Below are positions 1-16,733 of a DNA stretch of 38,512 nucleotides, one piece after another (within the stretch, counting starts at the first letter, position 1; each line of letters begins with the position of its first letter). Made by a program: the position numbers and the translations under genes. The notes below the pieces were generated by a model, which did no database searches, had not been told where the DNA came from, and was given only the letters and a program-made list of their open reading frames with translations. The stretch lies in the NCBI GenBank assembly GCA_023247935.1, contig JAHFFM010000001.1, positions 19,353 to 57,864 on the forward strand, written 5' to 3'. This DNA is from Candidatus Omnitrophota bacterium (lineage in GTDB: Bacteria > Omnitrophota > Gorgyraeia > 2-02-FULL-51-18).

Positions 1-285
1 TAAATCATGATTTTTTTTCTTAAGCTCATCCAATTCCTTGACCATCGCCTCTTCCTTGGTGAGAACCTGTGAAATTTTCTTGGTGTCCTGATACTTTAGG
101 AAAGCCAAAACCGCGACGGCGGCCACCACCGTGGCAATCAGTGGGATTACTATTTTGGATGGAAAGGATCCAAGTTTTGGAGTTTTTGGTGTCGTCTTTA
201 AGGGCTCTGAGGGCTGCATTTTCTCTCTGAGCATCTCTTTAAACTCTTCCGGTTTTGAGGGGTCTTGAATAGGGTCGTCGGTCAT
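1..285 (-). CDS. Partial CDS (3' end beyond window): small bitopic membrane protein with charged, coiled-coil-like tail; function unknown
   Basis: Absent from the supplied ORF track. Hand translation of the reverse strand from ATG 283-285 gives MTDDPIQDPSKPEEFKEMLREKMQPSEPLKTTPKTPKLGSFPSKIVIPLIATVVAAVAVLAFLKYQDTKKISQVLTKEEAMVKELDELKKKNHDL, with no stop before position 1. One hydrophobic helix (IVIPLIATVVAAVAVLAFL). The ATG overlaps the secretin stop (ATGA at 282-285). Confidence 0.55.
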   Translation of the reverse strand, partial: MTDDPIQDPSKPEEFKEMLREKMQPSEPLKTTPKTPKLGSFPSKIVIPLIATVVAAVAVLAFLKYQDTKKISQVLTKEEAMVKELDELKKKNHDL

Positions 286-2108
286 GGCCTACCCGCGCCT
301 CCTTTAGAAGGGGTTGTCGGGGGTGCTACCGCGGCGCCCGGCGGAGGAGGCGGCACATCGTAATCCGCGTAACTCATCAGCGAGGTGTCTCCCACGGGTG
401 GCGTTCCGGATCCTGTCACATCCACCAAGGTATCCCCATAAACAATATGCGGCGTCAAAAGAATTAGGAGTTCGCTGTGAACATTGGTCTTTGTGGAGGA
501 GTTGAATGGTCCTCCGATAAACGGCAAGTCTCCAAGAAAAGGCACTTTTTTGCGGCTCTCCGTGCTTTCATCTTTTTTTAGACCGCCGATAATAATGGAA
601 ACTCCGTCCTGAACCATCACGGTCGTTTCCGCGAGCGAACTGTCAATGATCGGAATTTTATTCCCGGAAGGCGTCGTCAGAAATTCAGCGACGCTGGAGA
701 TTTCAGGTTTGATTTTCATGGTCACAAAACCATCATCGTTGATGGTCGGAGTCACGGCCAGCTGAATACCCACGTCAATAAAGGTCACGGATTCGGCCGT
801 GGTGGTTGAATTGGAGCCGGTCGTGGTGGTAGTGGTCACATACGCCTGCTTTTCACCGACGTGAATTTTGGCTTCTTGATTATTCACCACCGCCAATTTG
901 GGATTGGAGAGAATGCGGGTATCCCCCATTGTCTTTAAAAAATTAACGAGCACTTCGAAGGCATCGTCGCCATCCACACGACCAAACACGAGATTTTCTG
1001 TGAGGGTGCTCTTGCTTCCGGCCGTCGGATTCGCGTCTGTCGGCTGAATAGTCGTAAAATTATCAATGAAAGACTCGCCGGTTCTGACAACCGGGCTAAA
1101 AGGGTGATTTCCTAAAAACTGGGTGCCGTATCTTGTCATGCGGGTGAAAATACCTTCCCACTTGATCTCGGCATTTAGTCCGTTATTGATAGTCACTTTA
1201 ATAACTTTCGCGTCAATGAGAACTTCCTTGGTTTTTTGATCCAGCGCCTTCACCACTTCATCGATTTCCTGCATGCGCTCCGGCAATGTTTCCACAATCA
1301 CCTGATTGGTGCGTTCATCCGCTGTAACCGTTCCAACTTTTTTATTGTCCAAGCGCGTCTTCAAACGGGTTTCCACTTCCAGCGCCTTGGCATATTTCAA
1401 ATTATACACCTTTACCGTCTTTTTTTGCTCCAACGCCGTAAGTGCTTCTTCCATGCGTGAAATATTTTGAGGGGCGTCCATGACCAACACGGTGCCGGAC
1501 TCCGGATCCACCAACAGACGTCCGATTTCACTCTTAAGCACTTCGAAAAGCGCGAACGCTTGTTCCGGGATCGCGTAACGAAGTTTGAATATTTTCACTT
1601 TTCGAGTGTCCGAAAATTTTCGTCCGTACCGTTCCTTATAAGCGGCTTCCGTCATCACATAATAAACGTCCCCTATCTTTTCATAGGCCAAGGCGTTGGA
1701 AACCAAAACAATGTCTAGAATATCCCTGATCGGAACATTATTTAAAAGAAGTTGGACACGACCTGTGACGGTTTTATCGATCGCCAGATTTAAACCGCCC
1801 TTGAGCGCCAAAAACCTTAGCGCGTCGGCCACATCGATATTTCTTAAATCCAAGGATACCTTTTCTTCAATCCCGGCGGAACCGGCTGTTAACTGCTGAT
1901 CCATCGGCGCGGCCTCTCCGGCGCTGGAAGCATCCGTCGCTTCTTCACCGACAGGACTAAAAGAACCGGCTGGCTGAGACTCTTCCGCAGGCGCGCTGGA
2001 ATCTGCGTCTTCCGCCAAAGCCACTCCGCAACCAATATAAGAAGCAGACAGGACAATCAACAGAAACATTGAGCAACCTTTTTTGAAGGAAAATTGATCG
2101 AGGATCAT
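282..2108 (-). CDS. Secretin (PilQ/MshL/GspD superfamily outer-membrane channel)
   Basis: 608-aa ORF. N-terminal signal sequence (KK...MFLLIVLSASYIGCGVALA). N0/STN-like block (VSLDLRNIDVADALRFLALKGGLNLAIDKTVTGRVQLLLNNVPIRDILDIVL). Two secretin_N-like repeats (VKIFKLRYA..., VKVYNLKYAKALEV...). Canonical C-terminal secretin core (LSNPKLAVVNNQEAKIHVGEKQAYV ... KVPFLGDLPFIGGPFNSSTKTNVHSELLILLTPHIV). Pro/Gly/Ala-rich C-terminal tail. Confidence 0.9.
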   Translation of the reverse strand: MILDQFSFKKGCSMFLLIVLSASYIGCGVALAEDADSSAPAEESQPAGSFSPVGEEATDASSAGEAAPMDQQLTAGSAGIEEKVSLDLRNIDVADALRFLALKGGLNLAIDKTVTGRVQLLLNNVPIRDILDIVLVSNALAYEKIGDVYYVMTEAAYKERYGRKFSDTRKVKIFKLRYAIPEQAFALFEVLKSEIGRLLVDPESGTVLVMDAPQNISRMEEALTALEQKKTVKVYNLKYAKALEVETRLKTRLDNKKVGTVTADERTNQVIVETLPERMQEIDEVVKALDQKTKEVLIDAKVIKVTINNGLNAEIKWEGIFTRMTRYGTQFLGNHPFSPVVRTGESFIDNFTTIQPTDANPTAGSKSTLTENLVFGRVDGDDAFEVLVNFLKTMGDTRILSNPKLAVVNNQEAKIHVGEKQAYVTTTTTTGSNSTTTAESVTFIDVGIQLAVTPTINDDGFVTMKIKPEISSVAEFLTTPSGNKIPIIDSSLAETTVMVQDGVSIIIGGLKKDESTESRKKVPFLGDLPFIGGPFNSSTKTNVHSELLILLTPHIVYGDTLVDVTGSGTPPVGDTSLMSYADYDVPPPPPGAAVAPPTTPSKGGAGRP

Positions 2109-2800
2109 CTCAGCTCAAACTCCTGTCCGTCATAACTCAAAATCACGTGGTCTTTGAAAATCGCTTCTACCTTCACGGAATCTCCGACCATCTGTCCCCG
2201 CTTCACAAAAAAAGTTTTTTGCTTGGTCTTGTCCTCAATAATCACATCCGGATTTTGAGACCAGGAAATACCGACCAGCGATAAGCTGTTCTTGATGGGA
2301 TTGTCCTGAGAAACGGCTTCTTTTTTGGTTTCTTTTTTGGCCGCCAGACCGCCTTCTTTAAAAATATCCCGGGAGCTGACTTTTTGAAGATAATACGCGG
2401 AATCCTTTAAGGAAGAAGCTGGGGTCGACTCCGCCGCCATGGATGTTTCTTTTTGGAAATTAAAATTAGGGGATTTTTGAAGGCTGAGCGCGGAAGCGAC
2501 CGTGTCCCCGGCCACATACACCAGAAGACAAAACGCGACCACTGCCAGAAGAATATTGAAACGCTTCAAATCAAAGCGTTGGCGTGAAGCGGTGATTTTT
2601 TTGGCGGTGCTTCTTTTTAAAAATGAAAAGCGGCCGAACAAAGCTCCGCGAAGCGCGCCCAAGGACAAAAAGCTCTTGCCGGCACGATCCAGCTTCGCCC
2701 CTTGAATTTTAACATTCAAAGAAGGCGACTGCTCGTCTTTGGACTGTTCAATCAGCTTTAGAAGCTGCTTTTCTGGAGTAAGCTGTCCGCCGTCTGCCAT
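2105..2800 (-). CDS. Bitopic inner-membrane protein with PilP/GspC-HR-like C-terminal beta-domain (putative secretin-docking protein)
   Basis: 231-aa ORF starting at ATG 2798-2800. Single TM helix (FNILLAVVAFCLLVYVAG). The C-terminal ~60 aa (LSLVGISWSQNPDVIIEDKTKQKTFFVKRGQMVGDSVKVEAIFKDHVILSYDGQEFEL) follow the L.L.G......A.I.......V..G..V.G..V..I....V.L...G....L pattern of GspC-HR/PilP domains. 43-nt overlap with the upstream ATPase gene; ATGA overlap with the secretin gene. Confidence 0.55.
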   Translation of the reverse strand: MADGGQLTPEKQLLKLIEQSKDEQSPSLNVKIQGAKLDRAGKSFLSLGALRGALFGRFSFLKRSTAKKITASRQRFDLKRFNILLAVVAFCLLVYVAGDTVASALSLQKSPNFNFQKETSMAAESTPASSLKDSAYYLQKVSSRDIFKEGGLAAKKETKKEAVSQDNPIKNSLSLVGISWSQNPDVIIEDKTKQKTFFVKRGQMVGDSVKVEAIFKDHVILSYDGQEFELR

Positions 2801-3630
2801 CCCGCGTGTACCTCATCCTCGATTATGCCTTTGACAATCTCGCGATCCACCACGAGTTTGTTTTTAAGCAGCATTTCTTTCAAAGCCCGGTGACACATCA
2901 TCGTCACTTTTCTCGGGTAACCATGGGTAAATTGATAGATCTCGCGGAGCGCTTCCTCCAAAAAGAGATCCATCTTCGACTGGTAACCCGCCTGCTTGAT
3001 GCGAAAATAAATCATTTCTTTCATTTCCGTATAATCTAAGGGGCTTAAAAGGGTTTTAAAGCTGATGCGATCCAGGAAATTAGGGATCCCGCGCAGGGTT
3101 TGCATGAGCTCGCTCTGACCCAACAGCACCAATTGCAGTAATTTAAACTGATTGGTCTCATAATTTAAAAGAACGCGTAGCGCCTCCAGGGATATTTCGT
3201 TCAGCTTCTGAGCTTCATCGATGATCAGGATCACCGTCTTATTTTCAACGATGCCCTTCTGAAAAAGAAAGCGTTCCAGCTTTTCGCGCAGTTCCGTGAT
3301 AGTAAAAGGTTGGGCGGGCGGCTCTCCGATAATCCCAAAATTGCGAACCAGGGACTGCAAAAAGAGCGCATTGGACTCAAACACCGGATCCAGCATGATA
3401 TGAAAGAGACAGTCTTCCCTCATCTTGAGATCCTGGATCAATTTTCTTGAGAGTGTGGTCTTGCCGGTTCCAACATCCCCCAACACGACGCTTAAGCCCC
3501 GTTTTAAACGAAGCTCGATCAGAACATTGGTCAGCGCGCGTTCATGTTCGCGGGAGGAATAAAAAAATTCAGGATCGGGGCTTGTGGAAAACGGCTCTTT
3601 GTCGAATCCTAAAATCCGGTAGTAGCTCAT
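2758..3630 (-). CDS. ExeA/GspA/MshM-like AAA ATPase (ATPase domain only)
   Basis: 290-aa ORF. Walker A LGDVGTGKTTL and Walker B TVILIIDEAQ. The opening (YRILGFDKEPFSTSPDPEFFY) and LLLGQSEL blocks are typical of ExeA/MshM and of the PEP-CTERM-locus secretion ATPases. No TM or peptidoglycan-binding extension. The ATG follows the MerR-like gene stop directly (TAA-ATG). Confidence 0.85.
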   Translation of the reverse strand: MSYYRILGFDKEPFSTSPDPEFFYSSREHERALTNVLIELRLKRGLSVVLGDVGTGKTTLSRKLIQDLKMREDCLFHIMLDPVFESNALFLQSLVRNFGIIGEPPAQPFTITELREKLERFLFQKGIVENKTVILIIDEAQKLNEISLEALRVLLNYETNQFKLLQLVLLGQSELMQTLRGIPNFLDRISFKTLLSPLDYTEMKEMIYFRIKQAGYQSKMDLFLEEALREIYQFTHGYPRKVTMMCHRALKEMLLKNKLVVDREIVKGIIEDEVHAGWQTADSLLQKSSF

Positions 3631-3882
3631 TTATAAGCTCCCCTTTTCTCTGGCGACGATCTTTTTACGGATAAGCCTTAGAGGATAACCCTCATTCATC
3701 ATCTTAGAGATGAGGCTCAAGCGACCGCGGACTTCTTTGTCGCTGTACATGCGCTTATTGCCTTCGCGCTTGATAATGGAAAGAAATCCCAGATCCGTAT
3801 AATGATTGATTGTCGGATAAGGAACTTTATATTTTTTGGAGATGTCTTTGGCCGTCACCAGACTGCCGTTTTTTTCCGTCAT
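3631..3882 (-). CDS. MerR-family helix-turn-helix DNA-binding protein (short, no obvious effector domain)
   Basis: 83-aa ORF. VTAKDISKKYKVPYPTINHYTDLGFLSIIKREGNKRMYSDKEVRGRLSLISKMMNEGYPLRLIRKKI matches the MerR HTH-wing-coil pattern (..RyY...GL......g.R.Y......L..I......G..l..I). GAGGA Shine-Dalgarno at 3886-3890. Confidence 0.75.
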   Translation of the reverse strand: MTEKNGSLVTAKDISKKYKVPYPTINHYTDLGFLSIIKREGNKRMYSDKEVRGRLSLISKMMNEGYPLRLIRKKIVAREKGSL

Positions 3883-4125: not shown

Positions 4126-5598
4126 CTACCTTCGCCCAAAATCGTCTTCTAGTCGCGTAATATCATCTTCGCCCAAATAGTCTCCTAGCTGGACTTCAAT
4201 TAAAGCCAAAGGTTCATTTCCCGTGTTATGCAGACGATGAATCGTCCCACGGGGAACATCCAGATAAGATCCTCGGGCGATAGGCCATTCTTTTTTTCCG
4301 ATCGTCGCCATTCCCTGACCTTGAACAACCACCCAGCGCTCGTCACGTTGAGCGTGTTTTTGCAGACTGAAACGAAGACCGGGTTCCACTTGAATTTTCT
4401 TTACTTGAAAATCAGGCCCCTTCGCAAGCACTTCATAGCCACCCCAAGGCCGACGTTCCTGTGCACTGGCCTCTCGATGAGCTTTAAAGCGTGCTAGCTT
4501 TTCTAAAACCTGCTGGCGCCGGGCAGCGTAGACTTCCAGAAACGCGATCACCCCAATAATCGACATAAAAATCAACCCGACCAAGGTCGCTCCAAAAGCA
4601 CTCACCTGAGTGGTTGAAATAGCCACCAAACCCAGAGTCACGGAAATAAAGTAAGAAAAAATCACGGCAATGCGGTCACTCATCCCCATCTTGACCAGAC
4701 GATGGGCAAAGTGATTGCGATCCCCCTTCCAGGGAGCCAGGCGACGTATCAAGCGAACCACAATCACAGAGGCGGTGTCATAAATCGGCACTCCGAAGAT
4801 CAGTACCGGTATAAAGGAAGTGATGTGGTGCAGTTGATCCCCTTGATAGTGGCAGAGCAGGGTAAACGCGGATAGCATGTACCCGATGAATTGGCTGCCA
4901 TTATCCCCCAGAAAAATACTTGCCGGCCTGAAATTTCTTATTAAAAACCCGGCCAAAACGCCCGCGAAGGTGATGAGAAAAAAACCTACCATCGCCTGAT
5001 CAATGATCTGGGTGATCCAAAAAAATGTCAGCGCGGAAATCAACGCCACCCCCGCGCAATGCCCGTCCAGTGAATCAATAAAATTAAAAGCGTTGATAAT
5101 CAAAAGAACCCAGATAAAAGTAATCACATCCCCCCAAAACCCTAGGTTCTGGATAAAGTTGATGGTGAGTCCCGAGTGAAGAAGAATAAAAACAGCGAGG
5201 AATTGCCCAGCAAGCTTTTGAAGCGGAGACAACGTGAATTTGTCATCAATAAGCCCTGTCAGAAAAATAACCAGGCTCCCCAAAAAGATAGTCATGACTT
5301 TGGGAGTCAGGGAGAGGATGTGCGTCAGAACAGGCCATTGGACATCAAAAATGCCCCGACCTAAGAAATAGGCTGCGCCGATCCCGGTAAAAACCACTCC
5401 CCAGAACGAGACAAAAATAGCGGCGCCCCCCAGAAGAGGCATGGGCTTGGTGTGCCGCTTGCGATCCGTCGGATGATCTAAAAACCCGTAGGAATGCGAA
5501 AGTTTGATGCCCACCCAAGAAAAAAAACTGCACAAGACAAAAGCGTACCCAAAAATAAAAAAATTCTTGAATAAGGACGTCCAAAAATATTCGCTCAT
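4126..5598 (-). CDS. Fusion: WecA/MraY-family polyprenyl-phosphate HexNAc-1-phosphate transferase (N-terminal, about 11 TM) plus ManC-type (type II phosphomannose isomerase-like) cupin domain (C-terminal ~115 aa)
   Basis: GT4-family membrane motifs: GLIDDKFTLSP, INAFNFIDSLDGHCAG, IFLGDNGSQFIGYML, GDRNHFAHRL. The C-terminus RPWGGYEVL...VKKIQVEPGLRFSLQKHAQRDERWVVVQGQG...VPRGTIHRLHNTGNEPLALIEVQLGDYLGEDDITRLEDDFGR is near-consensus for the ManC C-terminal cupin. The track start at 5604 is a TTG; I prefer the in-frame ATG at 5596-5598 (MSEYFW...). Confidence 0.85.
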   Translation of the reverse strand: MSEYFWTSLFKNFFIFGYAFVLCSFFSWVGIKLSHSYGFLDHPTDRKRHTKPMPLLGGAAIFVSFWGVVFTGIGAAYFLGRGIFDVQWPVLTHILSLTPKVMTIFLGSLVIFLTGLIDDKFTLSPLQKLAGQFLAVFILLHSGLTINFIQNLGFWGDVITFIWVLLIINAFNFIDSLDGHCAGVALISALTFFWITQIIDQAMVGFFLITFAGVLAGFLIRNFRPASIFLGDNGSQFIGYMLSAFTLLCHYQGDQLHHITSFIPVLIFGVPIYDTASVIVVRLIRRLAPWKGDRNHFAHRLVKMGMSDRIAVIFSYFISVTLGLVAISTTQVSAFGATLVGLIFMSIIGVIAFLEVYAARRQQVLEKLARFKAHREASAQERRPWGGYEVLAKGPDFQVKKIQVEPGLRFSLQKHAQRDERWVVVQGQGMATIGKKEWPIARGSYLDVPRGTIHRLHNTGNEPLALIEVQLGDYLGEDDITRLEDDFGRR

Positions 5599-5705
5599 TG
5601 TCAATTTAGTTTAGACTCATTTGATTTTTCATCGGCACAACCCATGTATAGCCATTTGACCCGCGAAAAGCAATAAAAAAAGAAGCTTTCGAGCATTCCA
5701 ACCGC

Positions 5706-7292
5706 TTAAACGGTATAAATCCAGTACTGCTTCGTCTGGCCACTAGTCTCCGGAGCCTGCTCCCCAAGAGCCGGAACCCGCCGGTTGGAAACAATAATTC
5801 GGATATTTTTACTTCTCATGACATTAAGAACCGAGTCGTTCACTTTCGGATTGGCGCATGGATAAATTTGAGCAGCTATTTCAACTCTAGCCAAACGAGC
5901 CCAGTACTGCAGATAAATATTTTTGCCACAATAAGCGACTTTAGACCCCGGCTCAATCCCCATCTCTTGGATCTTTTTTGCCGTGTCCGTTTGAAGTTGT
6001 TGATCCGCGCGAGGCAAAAACAGTTTCACCCAATTTTTTGAAAGGGACGCGGTTGTTAAAAAAATAAAAACGGCCATCGCCGCCAGAAACGCTTTTTTTT
6101 GGGATGCGGTATCCATTTGAGCTAAGAGTAAGAAAATTCCGATATAAAACAAAGCGGCGAACGGCGCCATGTACCTTCCCTCCACCAACAAAAACAGGTA
6201 CGGAAGAGTTCCTGCGGCACTCAAAAGAAAAATAGGGAGAACAGAGCGTAATCTTTTAACCAGAAAACCGGCAGGAACAAAAAAAACGAGGCTTAAAATC
6301 GGCAGCGAGTACGGAAAGAAAAAATAACTGGATAGAAATTGGCAATTTCTCGCGAGTGCCCCTAATTGCTTTCTAAGATTAAAGGTAACGGTCGGATTTT
6401 GCCAGGAAGGATCGTAATGCCATGGGAAAGTGACTCTCCGCTTAACTGTCGGAGGTACCTGAAATTCAAAAACATTGCAAGGTTTGCTGAGAAGTTTCTC
6501 ATGGATGATAGGAATCTTGTGCGCTCCTCCAACAAACCAGGCATAATTCGCAGCGCCAGTTGTTCCCATCGAAAATTTCCCGCTCTGCTTGCTAATCGAA
6601 TAAACATACGGAAATAACACGCTTGAAAACACCAAGAGCAGGATGGCGACGCGGATCACTCTCTTGAAAAATGAGAATTGTCTATCCAATAAAAAAATAA
6701 TGGTAAAGGCAGCCGTTATAAAAAGCATAATCGGCTTGGTCAAAAATCCAAACCCCAAAACGATCCCAAGTAAAATAGGCCAAAAAATGGATTTTCTACC
6801 GGAAGCAATCCAAAGCAAAAGGAGAACCGCTAAATAAACGAAAAAACTGACGAGAAGATCGGGAGTCGGTAAATCAACGGGAGTCGCTTTGAAGGTGGTC
6901 CAAGCAAAAAGAAAATAACCGAAAAGCTTTGTATAGAAACAAAATTTTTCTGTCGCCGGAAATAGTCCACGCCACCATTGAATCAAAACACGCATCAAAA
7001 AAACAAAAACAATCGCCGTCATTACCAGCGTGAAAAAATTAAAAGCGCTGATCGTCCAAAACTCAAAATCGATGGGAGGTCTCGCCCACTTCTGAATGAA
7101 ACCTAAAATAAAAGAATAAAGAAAACTCCAGTAAGCATTGATGGGATGGTGACTTCCTCCAAAAAAATACATCTCCCCCACATCCAAATAAGCGATACCG
7201 TCTGGATAGGTCAGATTGTTTCCAATTAATAAAAGCTGAGTAGCCGCTATCGCTAATGAGAAAAATAAAAACAACACATCGGTAAGATCCAT
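5706..7292 (-). CDS. Polytopic GT-C-fold glycosyltransferase-like membrane protein (ArnT/PMT, GT39/GT83-like)
   Basis: About 12 predicted TM helices. Early acidic loop (YPDGIAYLDVGEMY), GFGFLTKPIMLF block and a C-terminal soluble tail. Start moved to ATG 7290-7292 (MDLTDVLFLFF...), because the track start at 7421 would overlap the upstream flavoenzyme gene by 107 nt. Confidence 0.6.
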   Translation of the reverse strand: MDLTDVLFLFFSLAIAATQLLLIGNNLTYPDGIAYLDVGEMYFFGGSHHPINAYWSFLYSFILGFIQKWARPPIDFEFWTISAFNFFTLVMTAIVFVFLMRVLIQWWRGLFPATEKFCFYTKLFGYFLFAWTTFKATPVDLPTPDLLVSFFVYLAVLLLLWIASGRKSIFWPILLGIVLGFGFLTKPIMLFITAAFTIIFLLDRQFSFFKRVIRVAILLLVFSSVLFPYVYSISKQSGKFSMGTTGAANYAWFVGGAHKIPIIHEKLLSKPCNVFEFQVPPTVKRRVTFPWHYDPSWQNPTVTFNLRKQLGALARNCQFLSSYFFFPYSLPILSLVFFVPAGFLVKRLRSVLPIFLLSAAGTLPYLFLLVEGRYMAPFAALFYIGIFLLLAQMDTASQKKAFLAAMAVFIFLTTASLSKNWVKLFLPRADQQLQTDTAKKIQEMGIEPGSKVAYCGKNIYLQYWARLARVEIAAQIYPCANPKVNDSVLNVMRSKNIRIIVSNRRVPALGEQAPETSGQTKQYWIYTV

Positions 7293-7314
7293 TCCGCCGA
7301 TAGCACGGACAGAA

Positions 7315-8850
7315 CTATTTTTGAGAGGGCTGCGTAAAGGCATACGTGTCCGGTGTCGCGGAAGATTCTTGATAGTTTTCATAGTCCGTGTTGACCCCCC
7401 ACAAATCATGGTGGGCGCCATTCACAAGATTTTCCGCGGCAAAAATTCCCATGAGAATACTGTGATCCTGATTATTGTATTTAAAAGCGCCGTAACGGCC
7501 AATCACGCTCAAATTTTTTATCGAATTCAAGTATTGCTCAATAGGTTTTAAATGTTGTTTGTACCCTCGTTCATAAACCGGGTAACAGCGGCGGATTTTA
7601 TGCACGTGCCCTCGCAGGACTTCAAACTCTTTGGCGTGCCGGACGAAATCATCCACAAATTCCTGTTTGACGATCTCCTCCTTCGACAACTCTTCCTTAT
7701 TTTTGGATAGATAACGCATCGCTCGGAGACCGATGCGCTTGATTTCTCTTTTGGCCATTAAAATGAGCTCTTCCTCGCTTTTAGACCACAAAGCCTCTTG
7801 GTCATAACACCAATACTCCAGCGCCACAATCGTTGTTTTGGCGTTTCCATACAAGGTTGGCACCCAATTTCTAAAATTGGTCACACGTCCCGTTTGTAAT
7901 TCGGGAGAGTGCACGTAAATCCATTGATCCGGGAACAAGTCCGCGGCGTTGATCTCTAGATAAACTAAAATCGTATTTCTAAACTTCAAAGCAGCGGCAT
8001 TGTCTAAAACATTTTTAGGCGCGTCCGAAAGTTGGGAAACCAGCAAAGTGATGGGCATGGAAGAAATAACATGATCAAATAAATGGGTACTCCCGTCTTC
8101 CAATAGAATTCCAATCGCGGATTGATTTTGCGTTAACACCCTGGAAACGGGCGCTTGGCAATGGACTTGCCCGCCTCGGGCGCAAATCGCCTCTTTCATT
8201 CTCTCATACACCATTCCCGTCCCGCCGGTCGGATAAGCAAATTGATCCAAAAGCGTTTTGTGTTTTTTTTGTTTATCCTTAAAAACGGCGTATTTGATCG
8301 CTTCTAAGAGAGAAAGTTTTTTGATTCTTTGTGCCGCGAAATCGGAATCCAGATTCTTACAGGAGATGCCCCACAATTTTTCGCTGTAGGATTTGAAAAA
8401 TATTTCAAAAAGACGCCTGCCGAAACGCGCGACAACCCAGTTTTCAAAGGAACCGTCCTGGCGAATCAGAAAAAGTTTTTGGTAAACGTAACTGGCGACA
8501 CATCGCGCCGCCTCAAATAAACCGAGATTGGTTAGCGCGTTCCAGGCTTTAAAAGGATAGGCATAAAATTTCTTTTGATAAAGGATACGGGTCAGACGGT
8601 TGACGATTTTGTAATCGCGTCCGACAATTTCAAACCATAAGCCATTGACTCTCGCGTCCGTCGAAAAAAAGCGATGCGGACCCAAATCGACTCTCTGCCC
8701 CCACAGCTCGATGGTTTTGGCCAATCCCCCGACACTGGGGCCGGCCTCAAACACCTCCACCGCCACCCCCGCCTTGGCCAATTGATACGCGGCTGTCATC
8801 CCCGCCGGGCCGGCGCCGATAATTGCGACTCTTTTATTTTTATCAATCAT
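7315..8850 (-). CDS. FAD-dependent enzyme, Rossmann (GxGxxG) type; amine-oxidase/PPOX/UDP-galactopyranose-mutase-like superfamily
   Basis: 511 aa. N-terminal dinucleotide fold RVAIIGAGPAGMTAAYQLAKAGVAVEVFEAGPSVGGL. C-terminal VIGRYGAFKYNNQDH resembles the GRLxxYxYxxMD motif I recall at the C-terminus of UDP-galactopyranose mutases. Confidence 0.75.
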   Translation of the reverse strand: MIDKNKRVAIIGAGPAGMTAAYQLAKAGVAVEVFEAGPSVGGLAKTIELWGQRVDLGPHRFFSTDARVNGLWFEIVGRDYKIVNRLTRILYQKKFYAYPFKAWNALTNLGLFEAARCVASYVYQKLFLIRQDGSFENWVVARFGRRLFEIFFKSYSEKLWGISCKNLDSDFAAQRIKKLSLLEAIKYAVFKDKQKKHKTLLDQFAYPTGGTGMVYERMKEAICARGGQVHCQAPVSRVLTQNQSAIGILLEDGSTHLFDHVISSMPITLLVSQLSDAPKNVLDNAAALKFRNTILVYLEINAADLFPDQWIYVHSPELQTGRVTNFRNWVPTLYGNAKTTIVALEYWCYDQEALWSKSEEELILMAKREIKRIGLRAMRYLSKNKEELSKEEIVKQEFVDDFVRHAKEFEVLRGHVHKIRRCYPVYERGYKQHLKPIEQYLNSIKNLSVIGRYGAFKYNNQDHSILMGIFAAENLVNGAHHDLWGVNTDYENYQESSATPDTYAFTQPSQK

Positions 8851-10079: not shown

Positions 10080-11108
10080 TCAGGAAAGCCTCTTGATCCA
10101 TTTTAAAAGTCCCTGGTGAAGCGCTTTTCGATGACTGGTTCCATAAGGCGCTTTCGCTTGCGCATTTTCCAAATAATCGTTATAGGCGGTGATTAAAATT
10201 TCCTGATTGCCGCTCTTCGGTTCCCACCCCAGCGCTTGCTTGGCTTTGGCGTTGTCAAAATAAAAATCTTTGTGATACGTCAAATAATGCCAAGAAGCCA
10301 GCGGCGACAGGCGAAAAAAATCCAGCGTACTGAGTAGCGCGATACAGGGCGCTACCGGCAATGAAAGAATTTTTGAACGAGTGCCGGCATGACGGATCAA
10401 AGCCCCCAAATCTTCACGCAAAGAAGCAAATGTCCGGCTTCCGACATTGTAACTGCCTGAGGAAGTGTTTAAGGAAGCCAGGTAACAAACCGAGGCCAAG
10501 TCTTCGGAACTTAAAAATTGAATTTTGTTTTTCCCCGAACCCAAAATATAAATATTTTTTCCTTCAGAAATCCAGTCAAATAAAATACTGAAAATACCCA
10601 GACGCCCCGCCCCAATCACTGTTCGCGGCCGCATCACATCAATCCTCAGGCCTTTGGCGGAATACTCGGCGCAAACGTCTTCAGCTGCTTTCTTTGTTCG
10701 CGCGTACAAACCGACGGGATGGTAGGGCGCGTCCTCGGCCACGGGATTGCGTTTGGACATCTGAACGGCACTGGAAGAAATATGCACCACCTTGGAAACG
10801 CCGTTTCTTTTAGCGGCCTCCAAAACATGACGCGTTCCCTCAACATTCACTTCCCAAAAACCTTTACCGGCTTTGCTGATAGGCACCTTAGCGGCGGTAT
10901 GTATGATTTTATCGACACTGCGAGTAGCGGCCTCCACCTGTCGCAAATCGCGGATATCCGCGCGGATAAACTCTACCCCTGGAATGGGCTGTGGCAAACC
11001 CTCAATATCCAACACTTTAACGGTCTCGCCCTTATTCTGGAGAAATTTTACGATCTCAAATCCGCAAAACCCCGACCCACCGGTCACCAAATAAACGCTA
11101 GCAGGCAT
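10080..11108 (-). CDS. Extended-SDR NAD(P)-dependent sugar epimerase/dehydratase/reductase
   Basis: 342 aa. VYLVTGGSGFCGFEIVKFL glycine-rich loop and catalytic YARTK (YxxxK). 11-nt overlap with the upstream GT-C gene. Confidence 0.8.
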   Translation of the reverse strand: MPASVYLVTGGSGFCGFEIVKFLQNKGETVKVLDIEGLPQPIPGVEFIRADIRDLRQVEAATRSVDKIIHTAAKVPISKAGKGFWEVNVEGTRHVLEAAKRNGVSKVVHISSSAVQMSKRNPVAEDAPYHPVGLYARTKKAAEDVCAEYSAKGLRIDVMRPRTVIGAGRLGIFSILFDWISEGKNIYILGSGKNKIQFLSSEDLASVCYLASLNTSSGSYNVGSRTFASLREDLGALIRHAGTRSKILSLPVAPCIALLSTLDFFRLSPLASWHYLTYHKDFYFDNAKAKQALGWEPKSGNQEILITAYNDYLENAQAKAPYGTSHRKALHQGLLKWIKRLS

Positions 11109-12942
11109 AGCGAACGATTTTCTCCGATTCGTATAGCGCTAGCCAGGCGGGGTCTAAAGGACGGGTTCGCTTTTCTTCAAAACCGTCTTCTTTTAATGTC
11201 CGGCGAAATCTCTCCGAGACATCCCGGCGAATAAAAAATCCGATTTGATACGAATCCCGGCTGTTCTTTAAATTGGGGTCACGAACAAAAAATAAATCAT
11301 AACGTTTCGTCACTTCGCGCATATCGCCAAGCAAGTTTCCCTGGTTACGGCTCAAATGATGAAATAAAAGCTTTTTCTCCGCCACGTCAAAACCGTCTTC
11401 AGCTCTGATTCCGGCCACGGTCATCCAAAAAGGCCAATACACTTCCGGAGACTGCGAAAGAAAATAATCAGGATTGCTACGACCCTTATCCCCGTTACAA
11501 AACTTGGACTCGGCTATTTCGCGGGTACTATAGCCCCACAAATCGATCACAAAACGATCGGAGCCAAAGCCGAAAGAATTCATTTCTGTCGTTGAAAAAC
11601 GAAAGTCTTTGGGAGCGAGCCGGTCCAGAAAAGATCCGGACTTTAACGCGCAAGAGCGATTGACCCACTCCGTTCTGGAGAAAAGAAGGACGTCTTTTTC
11701 ATAGAAAAAGAGCCCCGTAAAAAATAGAAACAAAAATAAAGTAAAGCTCGCCCTTGGAAAGTCTTTTTTAGAGGGGTGCGCGATCCCCTCGGCGTCCGCA
11801 TGGGACACAACAAGCAGTGTCAACAACGCCAGAGCCGCCAAAAACGCGACCCAGTACCGGCATTCCCGGTTAAATAAAAATTTACCTACAATACTGAAAG
11901 AGACAGTAAAAAAAAGCCAGTGCGTCGATAAAAGTAGTGTGTAAATAAACACGGTTTTGGTGGATGGGTGGATTCTCTCGTCTTTCCAAAAAAAGATCAG
12001 AAAAGTTGCCGCCGCGAAACCCAAAATCATCATCGGCTGATTCAACCAGAAAAATAGGCTCGAGACAAACTCTCTAAAGCTAAACATATTCAGCATGACG
12101 GGTTTAATGAGTTTGAATAATAAAGGTGTCGGGATCCAAACTCCGTACATTATTTTATAAATAGAAAAATAAAGGCACAGAGCCGCCGCCGGAAAAATAA
12201 ACGCGACGGCCACATCCACAAAACGAATCGACTCGCGTCGACGGATTCTTCCAAATAAAAGCACGACCGAATGCGTCAATGAAAGAAGCAGTCCTTCCGG
12301 ACGGATCAAGGGCAGGCACCCGCTGACCACCAGAGACGAAAATTCCTTTTTCTCCGCCACGGCAAGACTAATCGCCAGAAAAAAGACCAAAGACAGGAGT
12401 ACATTTCCAAATCCGTTTGAAAAAATCATGACCAAGGGAAACATCATCGCCAGACAAGATAAAAGAAGGGTGTTTTTACGCGACAGCGTCTTAAACCAGA
12501 AAAACCACGCGCACACCAAATGAAGCCAGCCGAAAAACAACCCGATCAAATAATTCCCCAAAATAAGCACCGGAATCGAAACAGCAAAAGGCAGGTGCAG
12601 CAAATAATAAATCATTTCCACCGTCCCTCCCTGCATCTGGGAAGGTGACATGGAAAAAAATCCATGATGAAATAAATTGTACGGATGCTCGAGATTGATC
12701 ATCACCTCATCAATCGCGCCATACGTGTTGGTATAAACTCCGATAAAAATAAGGGAGGGCCAAAAAAGCGTCGCTAATGAGAATTTTGAAAGAGCGGGTT
12801 CCGCCTGACGCAAGATAAGGATTGCGACGGCAACAGAAGCAAAAATCCAGAGGGCTAATCCGAGCCAAACCGAGGGAATGAGTGTGAAAGGATTCCCCGG
12901 TAAAAAGTTTTGCACCGGCCCTGTGTATTCAAATAGCTGCAT
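11098..12942 (-). CDS. GT-C-like polytopic membrane protein with conserved C-terminal soluble domain (paralogue A of tandem pair)
   Basis: 614 aa with more than 10 hydrophobic helices. Acidic first-loop motif YGAIDEVMINLEHPYNLFHHG. Blocks shared with the neighbouring paralogue: GGTVEMIYYLLH, LPLIRPEG, WIPTPLLFK, STEMNSFGFGSDRFVIDLWGYSTREIA, NPDYFLSQSPEVYW, QIGFFIRRDVSER, and the terminal YAC. Confidence 0.6.
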   Translation of the reverse strand: MQLFEYTGPVQNFLPGNPFTLIPSVWLGLALWIFASVAVAILILRQAEPALSKFSLATLFWPSLIFIGVYTNTYGAIDEVMINLEHPYNLFHHGFFSMSPSQMQGGTVEMIYYLLHLPFAVSIPVLILGNYLIGLFFGWLHLVCAWFFWFKTLSRKNTLLLSCLAMMFPLVMIFSNGFGNVLLSLVFFLAISLAVAEKKEFSSLVVSGCLPLIRPEGLLLSLTHSVVLLFGRIRRRESIRFVDVAVAFIFPAAALCLYFSIYKIMYGVWIPTPLLFKLIKPVMLNMFSFREFVSSLFFWLNQPMMILGFAAATFLIFFWKDERIHPSTKTVFIYTLLLSTHWLFFTVSFSIVGKFLFNRECRYWVAFLAALALLTLLVVSHADAEGIAHPSKKDFPRASFTLFLFLFFTGLFFYEKDVLLFSRTEWVNRSCALKSGSFLDRLAPKDFRFSTTEMNSFGFGSDRFVIDLWGYSTREIAESKFCNGDKGRSNPDYFLSQSPEVYWPFWMTVAGIRAEDGFDVAEKKLLFHHLSRNQGNLLGDMREVTKRYDLFFVRDPNLKNSRDSYQIGFFIRRDVSERFRRTLKEDGFEEKRTRPLDPAWLALYESEKIVRYAC

Positions 12943-12973: not shown

Positions 12974-14824
12974 TCAACAGGCGTATTGACAAATTTTCTG
13001 CTCACGATAGGACTTTATCCAATCCTCGCCAACATCCCGGGAGCGCTTAAAAGCAAACCCTTCCACTTTCAAGCGTTGATCTAATCGCTCGGACACATCT
13101 TTTCGAATCAAAAATCCTATTTGAGACGGAGATTTTGTTTTTTCCGATCGCGAGTCACGAAGAATAAAGCAATCGTATTTCTCCATGACTTTCTCCATGT
13201 CTCCAAGAAAATTGCCCTGATCCTTGTTTGTGAGATCAACCGTCAGCAATTCACGATCCGATTCAATGCCGTCGGAATTTTTGAGCCCATGAACCGTGAC
13301 CCAGTACATCCAGTAGAGCTCCGGAGATTGCTCCAAAAAATAATTAGGATTTGTCCGGACTCTCATGCCGTTACAAATCCTGGAGTTAGCGATGTCTCTG
13401 TTGGAATAGCCCCAAAGATCTATCACAAAGCGGTCTGAGCCCAAACCGTAAAAATTCATTTCGGTGGACGAAAACTCAAAATCATCCGGCATCACACGAT
13501 CCGAAAATAATCCAACTTTAATGGCGTAGTCGCGGTTGAGACCTAAATCATTTTTATAATTTTTGGATGCTCCCTCAAATCCATGCATCAATGCTGACAA
13601 ATATAACATGCAAAAAATAAAAAAGCTTGGTCTTAGAACAATCGAATGAAATTTATCCGCCACCACAACTTCTTCCATGCTAGAAACAAAAACAAGACTA
13701 AACAAAGTCAGTGTCACCAGAAACGGCAGGCCATGACGCATCTCGCTGACTCCCCCCAAATAAGGCAATAAGGTGGCGCCAGCCATAAAAAAACTGAATT
13801 GAACGGCTAATAACAAAACACAAACCCAAAGCATCCTGATCTCAAGATTAAATTGTTTGTTTTTTTTCAACAGTAAGATGAAAAAAGCGATCGCGAGCGC
13901 TACACCCATCATCATGGACGGTTGGCTCAATAAAGCCAGCATCTGGTAAACAAAAAAGGCGGGGTTAAATTCTTTCAGCATGCTAAGTTTTACTGACTTA
14001 AACAGGACGGGGGTCGGTATCCAATGCCCATAAAAAAACTGATGCCCTGCTAGATAAACAAATAAAGAAAGGCATGGAGCGCAAAACCCTATCATCGTGT
14101 CGCCGATTCCTACGGCCTTCTTTGAAGTCTTTCTGTGGAATACAAAAGCGATGAAATTGATGACGGATAAATAAATCCCCTCGGGACGGATCAGCGGCAG
14201 AAGCGCGCCCAAGCCTAAGGACACGCGTTCGCGACGAGCCTTTAAAAAACTCAACGATAAAATGAAGGCCAGGGAAATCAAAACATTTCCGAAGCCATCA
14301 GAGAAAATGACGGCGATGGGCACCGTCAAAGCGAAGCAGGACAAAAGAAGCGTATTTTTATGAGAGTTTTCCGGTAGCCAAAACTTCCAAATACAAAAAA
14401 TATGAAGCCAGCCAAAAAGCATCCCCAAAATATAATTGGCTAGAAGAAGCCTCCGCAAATCTCCCGCGAAAGGTGTGTGCAAAAGATAATAAATAATTTC
14501 CACGGTTCCCCCGATCATTTTATGGGGAGACATCGAAAATAATCCGTGGTGAAACAGATTGTATGAATGTTCTAAATTAACCGCGACCTCGTCGTTCAGG
14601 CCGTAAGTATTCATATAAAGCCCAAAAAATATCAAGGACGGCCACAGAAGAGTCTTAAAGGAAGGTTTGGTAGAAATCTCCTCTTTTTTGGAACAAATCA
14701 CTATAAAAACGGCCAGTCCTGATAAAACCCAAAGCAACAAACCCAGGCGATAGGACGGAATGAGCTTAAAAAAGCTCTCAAAGCCAAATTCACGAATCAA
14801 GCCTTCATATTCCAATATCCTCAT
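12974..14824 (-). CDS. GT-C-like polytopic membrane protein with conserved C-terminal soluble domain (paralogue B of tandem pair)
   Basis: 617 aa from ATG 14822-14824 (MRILEYEGLIREF...). This start aligns with the MQLFEYTGPVQNF start of paralogue A and avoids overlap with the upstream SDR gene (stop at 14829-14831). Shows the same conserved blocks and the terminal YAC. Confidence 0.6.
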   Translation of the reverse strand: MRILEYEGLIREFGFESFFKLIPSYRLGLLLWVLSGLAVFIVICSKKEEISTKPSFKTLLWPSLIFFGLYMNTYGLNDEVAVNLEHSYNLFHHGLFSMSPHKMIGGTVEIIYYLLHTPFAGDLRRLLLANYILGMLFGWLHIFCIWKFWLPENSHKNTLLLSCFALTVPIAVIFSDGFGNVLISLAFILSLSFLKARRERVSLGLGALLPLIRPEGIYLSVINFIAFVFHRKTSKKAVGIGDTMIGFCAPCLSLFVYLAGHQFFYGHWIPTPVLFKSVKLSMLKEFNPAFFVYQMLALLSQPSMMMGVALAIAFFILLLKKNKQFNLEIRMLWVCVLLLAVQFSFFMAGATLLPYLGGVSEMRHGLPFLVTLTLFSLVFVSSMEEVVVADKFHSIVLRPSFFIFCMLYLSALMHGFEGASKNYKNDLGLNRDYAIKVGLFSDRVMPDDFEFSSTEMNFYGLGSDRFVIDLWGYSNRDIANSRICNGMRVRTNPNYFLEQSPELYWMYWVTVHGLKNSDGIESDRELLTVDLTNKDQGNFLGDMEKVMEKYDCFILRDSRSEKTKSPSQIGFLIRKDVSERLDQRLKVEGFAFKRSRDVGEDWIKSYREQKICQYAC

Positions 14825-14828
14825 AAGC

Positions 14829-15848
14829 TTAAATAGGGACTCCGTTTTTGCGGCACCACTCAATAGAGCGGCGCATCCCCTCTTTGAGCGAAACTTCTGG
14901 ATGATAACCCAGCTCCGCTTGAGCTTTGGCAATAGAACACGCGATGGACTTATTCATTTCTCCGGCCACGTGGATTTCTTTGATATAAAAACCCGTCAAC
15001 TGAATCAACCAATCGGCCGCCACGCACGACTCGGAGACTAGGTCTGGCAAGTAACGAGGTTTGAAATTTTTTACTTCCAAGAGATCCGCCACCGTGCGGT
15101 AAATTTGATTGGAGGTGTAGGGTTTTTCATCGGCGATCCAGTAGGTCTGTCCGACAGCGGACGGATGTGTCGCCGCCAGGAGCATCGCCTGGCACGTGTT
15201 GTCCAAATAGCTCATGCTTCTCAGGGCTCCTCCGTCTCCAAAAATAATCGGATTGCCCTTCTTGATCATTTTGAAAAATGTTGTTTGCCGGAGCGGTTGA
15301 TTCGGCCCGTAATACCAGCACGGCCTTAAAATAACCGTTTGGATTTTTCCGGATTGATAAAAATCATTCACGGTGACTTCCGCGTTCCATTTACTCTTTC
15401 CGTAATTAAAATAAGGATGAGGCTCGTCCGTTTCTTTCATGAGAATATCCGGGCTGGGATTCACACCGGCAACAGAATTACTGCTGATATAAACAAACCG
15501 CTTCACACCACTTTTAACGGAGGCCTCCAGCATATGACGAGTGCCTATTTCATTCACCTGATACAGCTCCGCTATCTTTTTCGGGTGAATAATTCCCACC
15601 GCGTGAAAGACCACGTCCACGTCTTGAGCCGCTTTTACGAGCGTTTCAGGTCTTGTGACATCGCCTTCGACAAATTCCACTTGCCCGGCGGAAACCTGGC
15701 TCCGCAGATCGGATAGATTAGTTCCGGGCAAAACCAAACAGCGAATTTTCCAATCATTCACAGGCCCTGCCCCATTAAAACCGCCTGACAAAATATCCAA
15801 AAATCGATTTCCAAGCCATCCGGGGACGCCTGTTATCAACGCTCTCAT
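14829..15848 (-). CDS. Extended-SDR NAD(P)-dependent epimerase/dehydratase/reductase
   Basis: 339 aa. ALITGVPGWLGNRF glycine-rich loop, YISSNSV and YGKSK (YxxxK). Confidence 0.8.
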   Translation of the reverse strand: MRALITGVPGWLGNRFLDILSGGFNGAGPVNDWKIRCLVLPGTNLSDLRSQVSAGQVEFVEGDVTRPETLVKAAQDVDVVFHAVGIIHPKKIAELYQVNEIGTRHMLEASVKSGVKRFVYISSNSVAGVNPSPDILMKETDEPHPYFNYGKSKWNAEVTVNDFYQSGKIQTVILRPCWYYGPNQPLRQTTFFKMIKKGNPIIFGDGGALRSMSYLDNTCQAMLLAATHPSAVGQTYWIADEKPYTSNQIYRTVADLLEVKNFKPRYLPDLVSESCVAADWLIQLTGFYIKEIHVAGEMNKSIACSIAKAQAELGYHPEVSLKEGMRRSIEWCRKNGVPI

Positions 15849-15860
15849 AACGCTCCTGAA

Positions 15861-16733
15861 TTAAATTTTAAAATAAATGACAAGAACGCAAACGCAAAAC
15901 CACGCGATCAAATTAATTTGCGTCATCTTATCAAAAAATAACACATAAGTCGGGTCATCCCCCAGCCTTCTTTTGTGGACAAGGTAGAGGTAACGAAAAA
16001 TACCATAATAAACGAATGGAATCGTGTACACCAAATGAGCCGTTCCAAATTCGGCGATGGTTCCGCTGTCCACCGTGTAAAGCATATAAACCACAATCAT
16101 CGTGGAAGTAAGAACCGCCATTATTTGATCGATGAAATACAAACTATACTTGGACAAAACAAAACGGTGACCCGCCGCCTTGTCCCCCAGCAATTGGCAT
16201 TCTTGCCGGCGCTTGACGAAACCTAAAAACATGGCCAAGAGGACAATCATGAATATCATCCAATGAGAAAACCGGACATGCGCGATCACTGTCCCGCCCA
16301 CCACACGCAGTACAAAAAAGATGGCCAAAGAAAAAACATCAAGAATCACGATATTTTTTATAATTTTGGAGTAAATAAAATTAAAGAGGAAATAAGATAA
16401 AACCACCCATCCAAACAGAGGGTTGAGTAGAAAAGATAAGGTGGTGGATACAACGCATAAACACCCGGACATAAGAAGCGCGAGTTCCTTCGATAATTTT
16501 CCGGAAGCCAGAGGTCTCAGCCTCTTCATCCGGTGAATCTTGTCTTGTTCAAAATCCACCAGATCGTTCATCAAATAAACCGCGCTGGCCATCATGGAAA
16601 ATAAAACAAATCCCTCCACGACTTGAAAATTTTCAGGCCAACTAAATAACTTTTTCCCGAACACCAAAGGAAGAAATACAAATAAATTTTTTGCCCATTG
16701 CTTGGGTCGGAGCGCAAAAAAAAGAGCTTTCAT
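15861..16733 (-). CDS. UbiA-superfamily polyprenyl-phosphate phosphoribosyltransferase-like enzyme (decaprenyl-phosphate 5-phosphoribosyltransferase / Rv3806c-like signature)
   Basis: 290 aa, about 8-9 TM. LRPKQWAKNLFVFLPLVF, then SAVYLMNDLVDFEQDKIH.MKRLRPLASGKLS (the NDxxDxxxD motif plus the KR.RP.ASG block), which is characteristic of the DPPR-synthase branch rather than the quinone/haem prenyltransferases. Confidence 0.7.
   Translation of the reverse strand: MKALFFALRPKQWAKNLFVFLPLVFGKKLFSWPENFQVVEGFVLFSMMASAVYLMNDLVDFEQDKIHRMKRLRPLASGKLSKELALLMSGCLCVVSTTLSFLLNPLFGWVVLSYFLFNFIYSKIIKNIVILDVFSLAIFFVLRVVGGTVIAHVRFSHWMIFMIVLLAMFLGFVKRRQECQLLGDKAAGHRFVLSKYSLYFIDQIMAVLTSTMIVVYMLYTVDSGTIAEFGTAHLVYTIPFVYYGIFRYLYLVHKRRLGDDPTYVLFFDKMTQINLIAWFCVCVLVIYFKI

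Follow-up and report, generated by a model that had tools for sequence, protein, structure and literature searches.

A WecA-related polytopic transferase fused to a ManC-type cupin in an uncultured Omnitrophota bacterium

The fusion gene and its domains

The window analysed here comprises 38,512 nucleotides of contig JAHFFM010000001.1 (positions 19,353 to 57,864 of the forward strand, assembly GCA_023247935.1) from an uncultured groundwater Omnitrophota bacterium, and it contains a gene in which a membrane glycan-initiating enzyme is joined to a small ManC-type cupin. As an earlier note on this DNA had claimed, the two domains are encoded by a single uninterrupted open reading frame (ORF); it spans 4126..5604 and lies on the minus strand, which the note had left unstated. 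The ATG at 5598 is the more likely start, while the in-frame TTG at 5604 represents an alternative that would add two residues. The gene is organised as follows:

4126..5598, minus strand: whole fusion ORF, 490 aa from the ATG at 5598, with a TAG stop codon at 4126-4128
4534..5598, minus strand: polytopic phosphoglycosyl transferase half of the WecA/MraY/DPAGT1 superfamily, residues 1-355, PF00953 at 7.5e-30
4471..4533, minus strand: basic linker, residues 356-376, comprising a shortened WecA cytoplasmic tail and the site of gene fusion
4129..4470, minus strand: ManC-type cupin domain, like type II phosphomannose isomerase (PMI), residues 377-490, PF01050 at 4.3e-33

The Glycos_transf_4 domain (PF00953) was found at residues 102-248 with 104.5 bits against a cut-off of 27, and the MannoseP_isomer domain (PF01050) at residues 379-485 with 114.4 bits against 23.6, where the match extends over positions 10-116 of the 116 in the profile. 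NCBIfam models for WecA and for the bifunctional GDP-mannose pyrophosphorylase (GMP)/PMI enzymes match the fusion partially and below their cut-offs. All of the sequence motifs quoted in the earlier note were located at verified coordinates, including RPWG at residues 383-386, SLQKHAQRDERW at 411-422, HRLHN at 454-458 and GDYLGEDDITRLEDDFGR at 472-489.

The transferase half and its predicted membrane topology

The transferase half carries all of the signature motifs of its superfamily, and its PF00953 score exceeds the curated threshold. The motifs are located as follows:

5239..5247, minus strand: DDK motif (D118 D119 K120, residues 118-120), in a short KR-containing loop
5062..5094, minus strand: NxxNxxDxxDG motif, reading NAFNFIDSLDG, residues 169-179
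4894..4908, minus strand: GDNGS motif, residues 231-235
4702..4722, minus strand: DRNHFAH motif, residues 293-299, in a large basic loop (8 K/R)

The aspartates of the DDK motif (D120/D121 in alignment numbering) and the columns of the other three motifs are invariant in 39 transferase relatives, and the family profile matches the solved structures of MraY and DPAGT1. The wecA equivalog model TIGR02380 gives only 92.9 bits against a cut-off of 326.05, so that the protein does not qualify as WecA proper. By these sequence measures the transferase half is a relative of WecA and not a demonstrated WecA. It would transfer a sugar-1-phosphate, probably that of an N-acetylhexosamine (HexNAc), from a UDP-sugar to polyprenyl phosphate, and in this way may initiate the glycan encoded by the surrounding cluster.

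Hydropathy and charge analysis, a crude method, predicted about 11 transmembrane segments and placed the catalytic motifs in KR-rich loops, all on one face of the membrane. Beyond the last transmembrane segment come the basic linker and then the cupin, both predicted to be cytoplasmic, on the same face as the catalytic loops of the transferase. Residues 1-355 share the domain and the signature motifs of the polytopic enzymes of the WecA/MraY/DPAGT1 type and, with about 11 predicted segments, may resemble them in topology, whereas a C-terminal cupin occurs only in the window protein and in two homologues, P0002 and P0003, among about 4,450 scored relatives. Other multidomain proteins were seen in the WecA family. 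P0277 (771 aa) combines a WecA-family polytopic transferase with CoA_binding_3 and Bac_transf, a monotopic transferase, and hence unites two types of initiating transferase in a single polypeptide, while P0266 (701 aa) carries a C-terminal oxidoreductase of the GFO/IDH/MocA family.

Reality and rarity of the fusion

A search of 5.8 billion clustered proteins recovered two further sequences in which the three Pfam domains of the window protein occur in identical order, namely P0002 (Logan assembly; 490 aa, 88% identical to the window protein) and P0003 (JGI metagenome; 493 aa, 87% identical). The linker is the most conserved part of the three fused proteins (90-93% identity). In addition, a 496-nt contig from run X2, a different sample of the same groundwater study, covers positions 4277-4772, including the junction, without a single difference or gap. 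The X2 contig is limited to this interval, the ORF is not spanned from end to end by any one contig, and parts of it are without cover; run X1, the possible source, of which about 45% was read, contributed short and imperfect matches only.

It could be supposed that an assembly or sequencing error joined two genes through a missed stop or a frameshift, as the two genes are separate in all relatives examined and the read depth of the available contigs is low. Such an origin is extremely improbable. The continuous frame and the conserved linker are kept in three independently assembled and diverged sequences, the contig from the other sample agrees exactly and without indels across the junction, where the earlier note had asked for a check, and the fusion entails the loss of about 11 codons, not a change of a single base. 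The gene is therefore a natural in-frame fusion.

The fusion is rare, being found in one lineage only and in three sequences. When the cupin alone was used for searching, PF00953 was its partner solely in P0001-P0003. A scan of 1.84 billion representative sequences gave no protein matching both halves, although the fused cluster is hidden there behind a non-fused representative, and failure to find the fusion in that set is not equivalent to its absence. Full-text literature searches found no description of the PF00953 and PF01050 architecture, in line with the statement of the earlier note that it was not known as a described one.

Origin from a wecA-cupin gene pair

The closest relatives of the transferase half are proteins of about 385 aa encoded by Omnitrophota metagenome-assembled genomes (MAGs), which share 52-65% identity with it and lack a cupin. 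Those of the cupin half are standalone cupins of 113-130 aa (45-70% identity), ahead of ManC proteins (38-56%); NCBI names them 'phosphomannose isomerase type II C-terminal cupin domain'. Of 9 wecA loci from other genera in the family, 7 have the cupin as an ORF of its own immediately after wecA and on the same strand, and four more such loci were found in metagenomes. At these split junctions the two ORFs overlap by 4 nt (ATGA or TTGA) or by 1 nt (TGATG), or are separated by gaps of 2-60 nt, and they lie in different frames or have a stop between them. The ancestral wecA and cupin genes were probably co-transcribed. Indirect evidence of co-residence comes from a further 20 small cupins, each tied to a WecA relative by an identical longest-contig size, several of these contigs being shorter than 4.6 kb.

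Compared with the split tail and cupin N-terminus, the fusion has lost about 11 codons, namely those for the acidic terminus of WecA, its stop codon and the start of the cupin. In the phylogenetic tree all small cupins group with the fused ones in a single clade (100/99), separate from the C-termini of ManC and from the cupins fused to GT1 glycosyltransferases, and the fused trio is nested on a long stem (0.57) in the family-level cupin clade. The direct source of the fused domain is accordingly this clade of standalone cupins of about 113 aa, adjoining wecA in relatives, and not ManC, which differs from the picture drawn in the earlier note. In split pairs WecA and the cupin have diverged equally (62.5 versus 62.3% identity). 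The comparison of these loci indicates that the fusion merged two ancestrally neighbouring genes, and the anatomy and origin set out above, graded together, are very probably correct.

The genome carrying the fusion (G000) also encodes a standalone paralogue of 113 aa on contig C96 (L001:1483-1824, minus strand), which is 63% identical to the fused cupin and has the motif QKHFKRAEKW. It lies between nth, encoding an endonuclease III-like protein, and genes for a hypothetical protein and a LysM-protein. In G317 and G304, wecA is located immediately upstream of the same block of cupin, hypothetical and LysM-protein genes, and the C96 paralogue looks like the occupant of the ancestral site. Two genomes of the same genus have a standalone cupin only and no such wecA. 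Together with the C96 paralogue, this suggests that the fusion gene is an accessory, cluster-borne second copy.

The cupin metal site

Three sequence features define the metal site and the family signature of the cupin:

4318..4380, minus strand: cupin motif 1, G(x)5QxH(x)4E(x)6G, residues 407-427, with Q413, H415, R418, E420 and W422
4225..4272, minus strand: cupin motif 2, G(x)5PxG(x)2H(x)3N, residues 443-458, with H454 and R455
4132..4185, minus strand: PF01050 C-terminal signature GxYLGEDDIxRxxDxxGR, residues 472-489

Both canonical cupin motifs match exactly, which makes Q413, H415, E420 and H454 the candidate metal ligands. These four residues are invariant in 52 aligned sequences of ManC, small cupins and GT1 fusions, in which R418, W422, R455 and the GxYLGEDDI signature are also invariant or nearly so; the fused cupin keeps all 19 family-invariant residues. 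The ligand spacing equals the H-x-H-(x)4-E...H of classical cupins, with Gln at the first position as in type I PMI, and in alignments to solved cupins the canonical H-x-H falls on Q-K-H. The zinc ion of type I PMI is bound by Gln111, His113, Glu138 and His285 (PMC3765361). Judging from the motif register, which would bring Q413, H415, E420 and H454 together, the metal-ligand site of the fused cupin appears intact.

The earlier note had read the sequence QKHAQRDERW as a partial replacement of the metal-binding set, by comparison with the stretch Q.HHHR.EHW of ManC-type enzymes. All 120 small cupins and all 40 proteins of ManC length have the core S.Q.H..R.E.W, and the residues around it vary. 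Among the 40 ManC-length proteins, position +10 is His in 23, Arg in 10 and Gln in 5, position +14 is His in 30 and Arg in 7, and position +9 is variable. In the 120 small cupins, position +10 is Lys in 66, Arg in 37, Gln in 9 and His in 6, and position +14 is Lys in 90, Arg in 14 and never His. The stretch Q.HHHR.EHW is only the majority pattern of ManC and is not invariant. The fusion carries Gln at +10 and Arg at +14 and does not conform to the majority pattern H-x-H-R-x-E-H-W; the true ManC proteins P0126, P0132 and P0133 read QKHARRSERW or QKHARRAERW, nearly the same as the fusion.

The proposed replacement of the metal set is unsupported, because the 'missing' His residues fall at positions +9, +10 and +14, which are variable even in full-length ManC, while the Gln/His/Glu/His set is kept. 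What is unusual about QKHAQRDERW is real as a signature of the Omnitrophota small-cupin clade, to which the fused domain belongs both by its nested position in the tree and by the residues K/R/Q (+10) and K/R/T (+14), but it does not reflect a loss of ligands. The comparison also guards against a tempting error, for it is not the His-rich stretch of ManC that forms the ligand set; the ligand positions follow the Gln/His/Glu/His of type I PMI.

Possible functions of the cupin

All of the invariant residues of the PMI domain of ManC are kept in the fused cupin, including Gln/His/Glu/His, and a working metal-dependent sugar-phosphate isomerase or binder is therefore most likely. The AlphaFold2 model of the domain has a pLDDT of 92.7, and its best fold matches are the Thermococcus small cupins 7zvy and 7zvm, deposited as phosphomannose isomerases. 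Activity of the PMI type, acting on mannose 6-phosphate (Man-6-P) and fructose 6-phosphate (Fru-6-P), is on these sequence grounds quite possible, though short of probable.

The second-best fold match is the cupin of CapF (TM-score 0.75), which raises the alternative that the domain is another sugar enzyme, for instance a CapF-cupin-like epimerase or keto-isomerase modifying the substrate or product of the transferase (the UDP-sugar or the polyprenyl-PP-HexNAc). Fusions of WecA-family proteins to nucleotide-sugar enzymes, such as that in P0266, are in agreement with this, as is the position of the cupin gene in G183 between those of an aminotransferase and a sugar-nucleotide short-chain dehydrogenase/reductase (SDR). 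However, the homology is specific to PF01050 and TIGR01479, with 50-56% identity to ManC C-termini against about 22% to CapF, and likeness to the small-cupin fold is generic (500 matches at E < 0.001), so that this alternative is improbable.

The layout of the GDP-mannose genes and of one operon also speaks for the PMI-type reading. The GMP_PMI model TIGR01479 matches the fusion at positions 341-466 only, with 112.8 bits against a cut-off of 372.95, and the fusion is not a bifunctional ManC. The family instead has a 'split ManC', in which a GMP-only gene of 337 aa corresponds to model positions 3-339 and a cupin encoded elsewhere to positions 360-466. The GMP-only gene lies within about 3 kb of the single phosphoglucomutase/phosphomannomutase (PGM/PMM) gene, on the same strand, in 5/5 family genomes checked. 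In the genome carrying the fusion, it is found on contig C229 (L004), downstream of trpA and followed by ruvX. In G034 (L012, plus strand) a small cupin gene (1474-1839) lies between genes for a GH130 protein (529-1467) and a GT1 protein (1845-2897) in a tight operon with 6-nt gaps; GH130 is the beta-mannoside phosphorylase family.

Several observations weigh against a PMI function. The clade differs from ManC beside the metal site (K/R/Q at +10 in 112/120, and +14 never His), and proteins that keep the PMI motif can lack PMI activity (PMC3204966). Phylum-wide profiles do not link the cupin to GDP-mannose synthesis: a GMP gene is present in 222/301 Omnitrophota genomes, in about 34/55 of those with the small cupin and about 144/197 of those without it, which leaves about 21 small-cupin genomes lacking GMP, these tallies spanning related, non-independent genomes and the cross-tabulation of GMP and cupin having been made by hand. 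Type I PMI is itself rare (22/301 genomes), so that being the only PMI candidate of a genome is not discriminating. Moreover, the PMI reaction is several steps away from that of a UDP-HexNAc transferase, and there is no obvious catalytic logic in joining them. Within the fused trio, divergence of the cupin runs about 1.5 times faster than that of its WecA partner. Because the completeness of the MAG is 80% and its contamination 5.8%, contig C96 and the window contig may stem from different cells.

An argument from a pathway hole, by which the small cupin would be the sole PMI candidate beside GMP and PMM genes, with neither a type I PMI nor a phosphoglucose isomerase (PGI)/PMI above cut-off, was dropped as non-discriminating, because most GMP-bearing genomes across the phylum have neither the cupin nor a type I PMI. 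Since gene content fails at phylum scale, the PMI reading rests on homology. Matches to the catalytic domain of type I PMI were also seen in other Omnitrophota, within giant open frames of 2,721 to 18,962 aa (G095:C5, G276:C58, G102:C98, G135:C5, G237:C5 and G177:C56).

The faster evolution of the fused cupin bears on a further explanation, in which the fusion arose as a neutral accident and its cupin is a relic on the way to being lost, while the standalone paralogue does the real job. The second cupin at the ancestral locus on C96 and the long stem of the fused clade also agree with this. A relic would hardly be expected to remain free of stops and indels in three lineages whose cupins are 12-23% diverged, to keep every family-invariant residue and a strongly conserved linker, and to give so confident a structural model, and this explanation is given a low probability.

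The gene neighbourhoods would also fit a different role for the cupin, that of a regulatory module, as one suggestion of the earlier note had it. The domain, no longer chiefly an enzyme, might bind a sugar phosphate or nucleotide sugar (Man-6-P, Fru-6-P or GDP-Man) and gate or stabilise an active transferase; in relatives the separate cupin would associate reversibly with WecA as a subunit. At 11 or more loci the wecA-cupin operon is tight, with stop and start often overlapping; the cupin travels with wecA and not with the GMP-PMM genes; the fusion has been kept over about 12% divergence, with the linker as its most conserved part; and the Lys, Arg or Gln that the clade has in place of two His residues beside the metal site could retune ligand binding. 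A precedent is provided by EpsW-EpsZ, in which a small cytoplasmic protein activates an initiating transferase by direct contact (PMC12802240).

The distribution of the genes is less favourable to such a role. The wecA subfamily is patchy, occurring in 8/301 genomes of the phylum sample and in 17/31 family genomes, while the small cupin is found in 55/301, and it persists at the same locus without wecA in contig C96 of the genome carrying the fusion and in G047, G063, G093, G302 and G318. Because the cupin is more widespread than the transferase and persists without it, it is not dependent on it. WecA relatives outside the family have no cupin, and the retention of all the invariant residues of the enzymatic ManC domain is as expected of a catalyst. 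A regulatory module is, on balance, unlikely.

A stricter version, unlikely in our view, would make the small cupin of this family, instead of a housekeeping isomerase, a dedicated transferase subunit that binds metal and sugar phosphate and couples the committed step, which consumes the lipid carrier, to hexose-phosphate supply. Fru-6-P feeds both UDP-GlcNAc and GDP-mannose. If this were true, it would constitute a new mode of control for polytopic phosphoglycosyl transferases, and the fusion in the window would be the Rosetta stone of the complex. Complex prediction for the split WecA and cupin pair of G035 gave a score of 0.00, which is no verdict either way on binding.

The overall explanation favoured here, a real fusion carrying a tethered PMI-type isomerase or binder, is moderately probable. 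A metal-dependent sugar-phosphate cupin would be held beside the transferase on the cytoplasmic face, and the fusion would mainly fix the 1:1 co-expression and membrane co-localisation of two proteins of the same operon, with no channelling or catalytic hand-over. Within the family, the tight operon, the equal divergence of the split partners, the joint relocation to the glycan cluster and the conserved linker fit a functional tie, but they fit plain operon inheritance as well.

Comparison with known systems

Both halves of the protein belong to known families, and the combination of PF00953 with PF01050 represents a new but narrow architecture. As in the bifunctional GMP-PMI enzymes ManC, AlgA and XanB (TIGR01479), to whose cupins the C-terminal 114 residues are 50-56% identical, the fusion keeps Q, H, R, E, W, HR and GxYLGEDDI, all invariant there. 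Unlike these enzymes, the fusion has a membrane transferase in place of the nucleotidyltransferase half, GMP being encoded by the separate 337-aa gene on another contig, and it has Gln and Arg instead of the usual His at +10 and +14, in a domain that falls into the separate small-cupin clade. The standalone Omnitrophota cupins of about 113 aa, its direct source, share up to 70% identity, the clade and the K/R/Q signature with it but are free proteins. The single cupins 7zvy and 7zvm from Thermococcus (about 110 residues) are similar in fold (TM-score 0.86-0.89, root-mean-square deviation 1.2-1.7 A), although they are only about 22% identical and their PMI activity is taken from the deposition title.

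A ManC-type cupin has also become attached, independently, to the C-terminal end of glycosyltransferases in P0135, P0144 and P0149. The partner there is a soluble GT1 (PF00534), and these cupins form a separate clade (98/90) in which His is kept at +14. A cupin protein needed for lipopolysaccharide in Acidovorax (PMC8666233) is a generic cupin and was set aside as a comparison. The EpsW-EpsZ system (PMC12802240) shares the theme that the committed step is governed through direct contact with a small soluble protein, but EpsZ is a monotopic transferase and EpsW a response regulator, and neither is homologous to the fusion proteins.

Polytopic transferases of the WecA/MraY type joined to soluble pathway domains have been catalogued far less than the corresponding fusions of monotopic ones, and the present architecture is an addition to them. 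With the conserved wecA-cupin operon, it provides a testable hypothesis for the abundant family of cupins of about 113 aa, as isomerases or as transferase partners. The significance of the fusion is limited by its narrow spread and by the lack of an obvious catalytic link between its halves.

Genomic neighbourhood

The fusion gene closes a glycan cluster of about 33 kb encoded on a single strand (window positions 5706-38158, minus strand). Over 35 kb, the surrounding cluster encodes glycosyltransferases of families GT1, GT2, GT8 and GT87, a Wzy-like protein, a carbamoyltransferase, a UbiA-family protein and several unannotated large membrane proteins. The following genes were distinguished within it:

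5706-7421, 11098-12942, 12974-14932 and 32859-34751, minus strand: four large ORFs without a family match
7315-8850, minus strand: PRK07208-type FAD oxidoreductase
14829-15848, minus strand: SDR adjoining the UbiA-family gene
15861-16733, minus strand: UbiA-family protein, decaprenyl-phosphate phosphoribosyltransferase-like, 258 bits, above the cut-off of 234
19689-21440, minus strand: carbamoyltransferase
23451-24800, minus strand: Wzy-like protein
25989-27254, minus strand: GT87 glycosyltransferase

This gene set suggests a polyprenyl-phospho-pentose/GT-C type pathway in an Omnitrophota MAG. The cluster fits a complex envelope glycan, which may contain mannose. Downstream of the fusion gene, on the same strand, lie four further genes:

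3631-3882, minus strand: MerR-family helix-turn-helix protein
2758-3630, minus strand: AAA_22 ATPase
2105-2800, minus strand: type II secretion system protein C-like gene
282-2108, minus strand: secretin

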